A stretch of DNA of 64,000 bases from a virus (taxonomy: Duplodnaviria; Heunggongvirae; Uroviricota; Caudoviricetes): the IMG/VR virus record IMGVR_UViG_2724679236_000008. One strand, given 5' to 3'. Every line of letters starts with the position of its first letter. Within the stretch, counting starts at the first letter, position 1. A program made the translations under genes and the position numbers. The notes beneath the pieces were generated by a model, which was not told the DNA's origin, did no database searches, and worked only from the letters and a program-made list of their open reading frames with translations. This document shows positions 10,259 to 10,275 of the stretch, in pieces.

Positions 10259-10275
10259 AAATTTATTAGAGCAAT
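10259..10275. promoter_or_regulatory. C1-type operator AAATTTATTAGAGCAAT heading the minus-strand tRNA/tci/ban operon
   Basis: Exact reverse complement of the P1 C1 operator consensus ATTGCTCTAATAAATTT as recalled from memory; overlaps dmt stop codon. Confidence 0.55.

Follow-up and report, generated by a model that had tools for sequence, protein, structure and literature searches.

The analysed window, a 64,000-nt stretch of DNA, contains at positions 10259–10275 (+) a 17-bp sequence, AAATTTATTAGAGCAAT, which overlaps the final 10 bases of dmt (10266–12530, −) and stands at the head of the ban operon. This operon runs leftward on the minus strand and comprises tRNAs, tciA-C, a tRNA(CAT), ban (6544–7914) and dbn (5546–6544). 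Both strands of the window were searched for further copies of AAATTTATTAGAGCAAT, with those at up to two mismatches being listed as strong and those at three mismatches as weak. Seven strong sites were obtained, and relaxing the cut-off to three mismatches added one site only, at 61758–61774. A sequence-only reading of the same DNA had counted six copies, at 659, 10259, 13781, 28937, 30596 and 57908; the 17-mer is present at each of these positions with 0–2 mismatches, but the count overlooked a seventh strong copy at 10248–10264 (−), which is inverted relative to the copy at 10259–10275 (+) and shares 6 bp with it.

The number of copies is far above the chance level. In dinucleotide-preserving shuffles of the window, 0.02 copies are expected at up to two mismatches, and not one of 100 shuffles gave even two such matches, compared with the seven observed. 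A generous map of open reading frames takes up 89% of the window, and the seven strong copies all fall within the remaining ∼11%. Likewise, coding DNA contains no match at up to two mismatches and a single one at three, so that the motif does not occur there at a similar frequency, the outcome that would have made it non-specific. The intergenic placement originally proposed for the copies holds in that all seven strong ones lie outside long open reading frames, with the qualification that 10 bases of the 10259 copy are within the 3′ end of dmt.

The sequence AAATTTATTAGAGCAAT is the reverse complement of ATTGCTCTAATAAATTT, the published asymmetric 17-bp consensus of the phage P1 C1 operator, of which about 22 are reported to be scattered over the P1 genome (PMC8546580). 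Operators in the P1 reference used here (AF234172 / NC_005856) are annotated as protein_bind features, “phage repressor C1”. The seven 17-mers of the window are base for base the same as annotated P1 operators, syntenic with them and in the same orientation; the C1-type interpretation first given to six of the copies is thus borne out, each being such a feature in both sequence and position. Pairwise alignments with P1 over ±80 bp gave 97–100% identity, with the promoter elements kept. In parallel, the window was scanned with an independent weight matrix built from 12 P1 operators only, all of them outside the window region. The same seven sites took the top seven ranks in the whole window with scores of 18.5–26.7 bits, followed by the site at 61758 with 16.0 bits and by all others at 11.5 bits or below. 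Taken with the site-for-site correspondence, the repeats are almost certainly operators of a P1-type C1 immunity repressor in a P1-like plasmid-prophage.

Comparison of the operators with their surroundings showed that none of 113 operator bases differs from P1, as against 43 of 962 flanking bases (4.5%; P ∼0.006), with several substitutions located directly beside operators and none inside them. The identity of the operators with those of P1 is in large part inherited, because the whole region is 94–100% identical to P1, and it provides only modest independent evidence of current function.

The individual operators were placed relative to promoters whose positions were taken from the P1 annotation and carried over by alignment. 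O26 (formerly Op82) is located at 659–675 (−) with the sequence AAAATTATTAGTGCAAT (two mismatches), between pmgL (356–601, −) and gene 26 (748–1125, +); it corresponds to P1 feature 78528–78544 and has flanks 99% identical to P1. On P1 coordinates, the −10 element of the predicted P2pmgL and the −35 element of P1pmgL both overlap it. This copy had been proposed to head the baseplate block; it does adjoin gene 26, but the promoters that it overlaps are the predicted σ70 promoters of pmgL, not the late promoter of gene 26. For the remaining copies the operon assignments of the sequence-only reading (ban, dmt, kilA-repL, c4-icd-ant and ssb/lyz) are correct by synteny with P1.

The copy at 10259–10275 (+) is Obana (formerly Op72a), a perfect copy of the consensus with no mismatches, and covers the −35 element of P1ban. 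Its inverted neighbour at 10248–10264 (−), AAATTTATTAGTGTAAT (two mismatches; P1 feature 68678–68694), is Obanb (formerly Op72b) and covers the −10 element of the same promoter (TAATAT, 10246–10251, minus strand) together with the spacer. The two constitute one bivalent operator, Obanab (Op72ab), the 10259 copy being half of the pair. A consensus σ70 scan at the ban operator found no strong match, because the −35 element of P1ban (TTGCTC) agrees with the consensus at three of six positions and lies below the threshold of the promoter scan. Further along, Odmt (formerly Op68) at 13781–13797 (+), ATATTTATTAGAGCAAT (one mismatch), is the same as the P1 operator and abuts the −35 element of Pdmt, the promoter that drives uhr-hrdC-dmt leftward.

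OrepL (formerly Op53) at 28937–28953 (+), AAATTTATTAGAGCAAA, has one mismatch to the consensus and none to the P1 operator, and contains the −10 element (TCTAAT, minus strand) of P53/PkilA, which drives kilA (28067–28867, −) and repL (27195–28037, −). In the P1 lysogen, expression of kilA-repL is blocked by C1, which overlaps P53 when it is bound to Op53 (PMC9948254). The P53/PkilA spacer (28954–28971) has one T fewer than in P1 (16 versus 17 nt), and several substitutions are found just outside the operator. Oc4 (formerly Op51) at 30596–30612 (+), AAATTTATTAGAGCATT (one mismatch, same as the P1 operator), overlaps the −35 element of P2c4 (P51a), from which c4-icd-ant is driven leftward. Directly downstream lie the a1b1 targets at 30483–30535 (−) and the C4 antisense RNA at 30330–30415 (−), as identified with Rfam, and the layout of the immI operon, which continues with icd (30062–30283) and ant1 (29031–30065), is therefore confirmed. 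Finally, Ossb (formerly Op21) at 57908–57924 (+), AAATTAATTAGAGCAAT (one mismatch), again the same as the P1 operator, is situated between ssb (57400–57888, −) and lyz (open reading frame 57959–58615, +), just downstream of the −10 element of P2ssb and over the −35 element of P1ssb.

Other candidate sites were considered and rejected. A match to the core at 13854–13864 (ATTAGAGCAAA), upstream of upfC, has six mismatches over the 17 bp and its core is broken in P1 (ATCAGAGCAAA), which marks it as a chance match. A second core match, at 61641–61651 (ATTAGAGTAAT), has four mismatches over the 17 bp and coincides with the predicted −10 element of PdarB (TAGAAT in P1); it was not accepted as an operator. 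Matrix matches of 12.4 bits or less, at 25426, 6538, 27670, 52525 and 26789, are within the range of the shuffles and lie mostly in coding DNA.

In contrast to P1, which has Orlf (Op55) just after repL, the window lacks this operator: the sequence downstream of repL is unrelated to P1 and contains no match to the core. The absence of Op55 results from replacement of the rlfA-rlfB segment, whose place (∼25400–27190) is taken by an Ail/Lom-type outer-membrane protein gene (26584–27099, −) and a hok/sok-type module with a sok antitoxin RNA (26086–26259, −). The closest match to this replacing segment is Salmonella phage SJ46, which has the same arrangement.

The region around the ban operator is ∼94% identical to Escherichia phage P1 and its relatives, in reverse orientation, and more than 1,100 records of P1-like plasmids match the first 25 kb of the window. 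The ends of the window match the E. albertii plasmid pEA4_97 (NZ_CP117679.1, IncY, 97,069 bp) with 100% and 99.8% identity, and the spacing of these end matches on the plasmid implies a collinear span of ∼64.1 kb, the comparison being of the window ends only. These sequence similarities identify the window as a P1-like plasmid-prophage (Punavirus, IncY) of the type known from E. albertii.

The repressor gene itself had been stated to lie outside the window and, in agreement with this, a tblastn search with P1 C1 found no c1 homologue in the window. The check proposed in the sequence-only reading, to locate c1 outside the window, was carried out on pEA4_97 as a proxy for the replicon; there c1 lies beyond the window span by ∼20 kb and encodes a product identical to P1 C1 (C1.100) at 281 of 283 residues. 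From this near-identical plasmid we infer that c1 is probably also present on the replicon of the window. Outside the window span, pEA4_97 carries ∼12 more operators with scores of 15 bits or above, among them the ones at c1/coi, lpa, pmgT and pmgR. An annotated C1 is also found on the Salmonella plasmid p28322-3; a Pfam search with C1 gave no family match. As a separate observation, pEA4_97 has two extra icd-antirepressor modules outside the window span (10900–12700 and 16300–17760), which are 82–86% identical to the immI region of the window, and one of them is headed by a C1 operator of perfect consensus (10987–11003).

These placements suggest how the sites may act. C1, encoded elsewhere on the replicon, would bind each asymmetric 17-bp site (ATTGCTCTAATAAATTT) and, since the sites overlap or abut a −35 or −10 hexamer of a σ70 promoter, the bound repressor would block RNA polymerase. 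In a lysogen this would silence the ban helicase operon, uhr-hrdC-dmt, the lytic replicon kilA-repL, the c4-icd-ant antirepressor operon, ssb and the divergent region of pmgL and gene 26. Loss of C1 activity would then derepress all of these dispersed early and lytic units together. For the window, we infer from the biology of P1 that C1 would bind and occlude the promoters, with Lxc enhancing its action and Coi or Ant inactivating it. According to the GenBank annotation and PMC9948254, C1 binding and C1-dependent repression are established for the identical sequences in P1.

Three other explanations of the repeats were weighed against this one. The 17-mer might be an AT-rich, promoter-like word that recurs in intergenic DNA by chance and has no specific binding protein, as could be suspected from its AT-rich and variable 5′ half, in which positions 1–6 carry little information, and from the AT-richness of intergenic DNA generally. 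However, the conserved portion of the motif is the G/C-containing core ATTAGAGCAAT, no shuffle reached two matches where seven are seen, the independent matrix picks out exactly these sites, and the sites fall on annotated C1 operators; the shuffle statistics and the site-for-site identity with P1 operators already refute this explanation, to which we attach a negligible probability. Equally improbable is that the 17-mers are bound by another regulator, such as the late activator Lpa or a host factor, in place of C1. The P1 annotation does place late promoters (LP26/LPpmgL, LPlyz and LPpro) within 100 bp of three of these sites, yet their −22 and −10 elements are annotated separately and do not overlap the 17-mers, and there is no late promoter near the ban, dmt, kilA and c4 sites. 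Moreover, the P1 record attributes every such 17-mer to C1, and binding of C1 to the 17-mer sequence is described in PMC9948254 and PMC8546580.

More room, although still very little, can be given to the suggestion that the sites are inherited, non-functional relics on an element whose repressor has been lost or changed, so that no active regulon exists here. The position of c1 outside the window and the remodelling of the element elsewhere, with darB truncated and rlfAB and Op55 replaced, would agree with such decay. Against it, the near-identical pEA4_97 has an intact c1, 99% identical to that of P1 and with operators of its own, and the C4 RNA, icd, ant, kilA, repL, ssb and ban are all intact in the window. 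Furthermore, the complete lack of changes in operators whose flanks have diverged from P1 argues for continuing selection, and we very much favour the reading of the seven sites as operators of a P1-type C1 repressor over their being relics.

The weak eighth site, at 61758–61774 (+), has the sequence AAATACATTAGGGCAAT with three mismatches and occupies codons 19–24 of the 5′ remnant of darB; the predicted PdarB lies ∼110 nt upstream of it, and the late promoter LPpro is ∼90 nt away. Its matrix score, 16.0–16.6 bits, lacks significance on its own, since each shuffled window yields ∼0.1 sites at 16.6 bits. Its mismatches include a G where all 19 annotated P1 operators used have A or T. The same sequence is present in P1 without operator annotation, whereas in P7 (AF503408) it is annotated, at the same position in the 5′ end of darB, as a “hypothetical monovalent C1-controlled operator Op(pro)”. 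In Cronobacter phage JK004 (MZ188976) the same alignment columns read AGATTTATTAGAGCAAT, with one mismatch to the consensus compared with three in the window, in flanks that have diverged. A ∼59-nt block of the darB 5′ end that includes the weak site (61726–61783) is identical in the window, P1 and P7, with the surrounding 200 nt differing by ∼7%. As the site encodes part of the conserved protein segment IRAIT, coding constraint is an alternative explanation of its conservation. On these comparisons, a weak operator at 61758–61774 is plausible but falls short of being demonstrated.

In the window, darB is cut after ∼62 codons, ∼130 bp downstream of the weak site, relative to the P1 gene. From 61890 to 64000 an AT-rich spacer and a fimbrial operon take the place of the rest of darB, arranged as in E. 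albertii pEA4_97, with a PapB-family regulator (62626–62913) and a fimbrial subunit (63065–63604), beyond which lies a PefC usher. Because this PapB-regulated operon replaces darB directly downstream of PdarB, the prophage repressor could influence read-through into the fimbrial genes if the 61758 site were a working C1 operator, a combination that we regard as unlikely. If true, expression of an adhesin would be coupled to the immunity state of the P1-like plasmid-prophage, a form of lysogenic conversion.

Characterisation of the network of C1 operators in P1 dates back to the late 1980s; the operator set is textbook material, and the GenBank records of P1 and P7 already list its sites individually. 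The present sites accordingly have little import beyond annotation: a plasmid-prophage of the P1-like kind seen in E. albertii has retained seven operators of the P1 immunity regulon without change despite its swapped accessory modules. The one mildly informative point is the comparative support for the hypothetical Op(pro), in the form of a near-consensus sequence at the same place in a Cronobacter phage whose DNA is ∼74% identical to the window across the prt-darB junction, the single region that was aligned.

In this phage, JK004, which is a distant P1-like phage, the C1 homologue shows 76% identity, and the 17-mer recurs 18 times with at most three mismatches, against ∼0.3 expected; the intergenic regions at dmt, ban, ssb-lyz, lpa and c1 hold some of these copies, as does the darB 5′ end. 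Upstream of its ban homologue there are, at 29881–29925, two C1-type operators in the same orientation, 28 bp apart, whereas P1 and the window have the overlapping inverted pair. The leader of the ban operon in the window contains tRNA genes at 8196–8271 and 9233–9319, namely a tRNA(CAT) of the P1 trnI type and a tRNA-Ser(TGA); in P1 the position of the tRNA-Ser(TGA) is taken by tRNA-Thr and tRNA-Asn.
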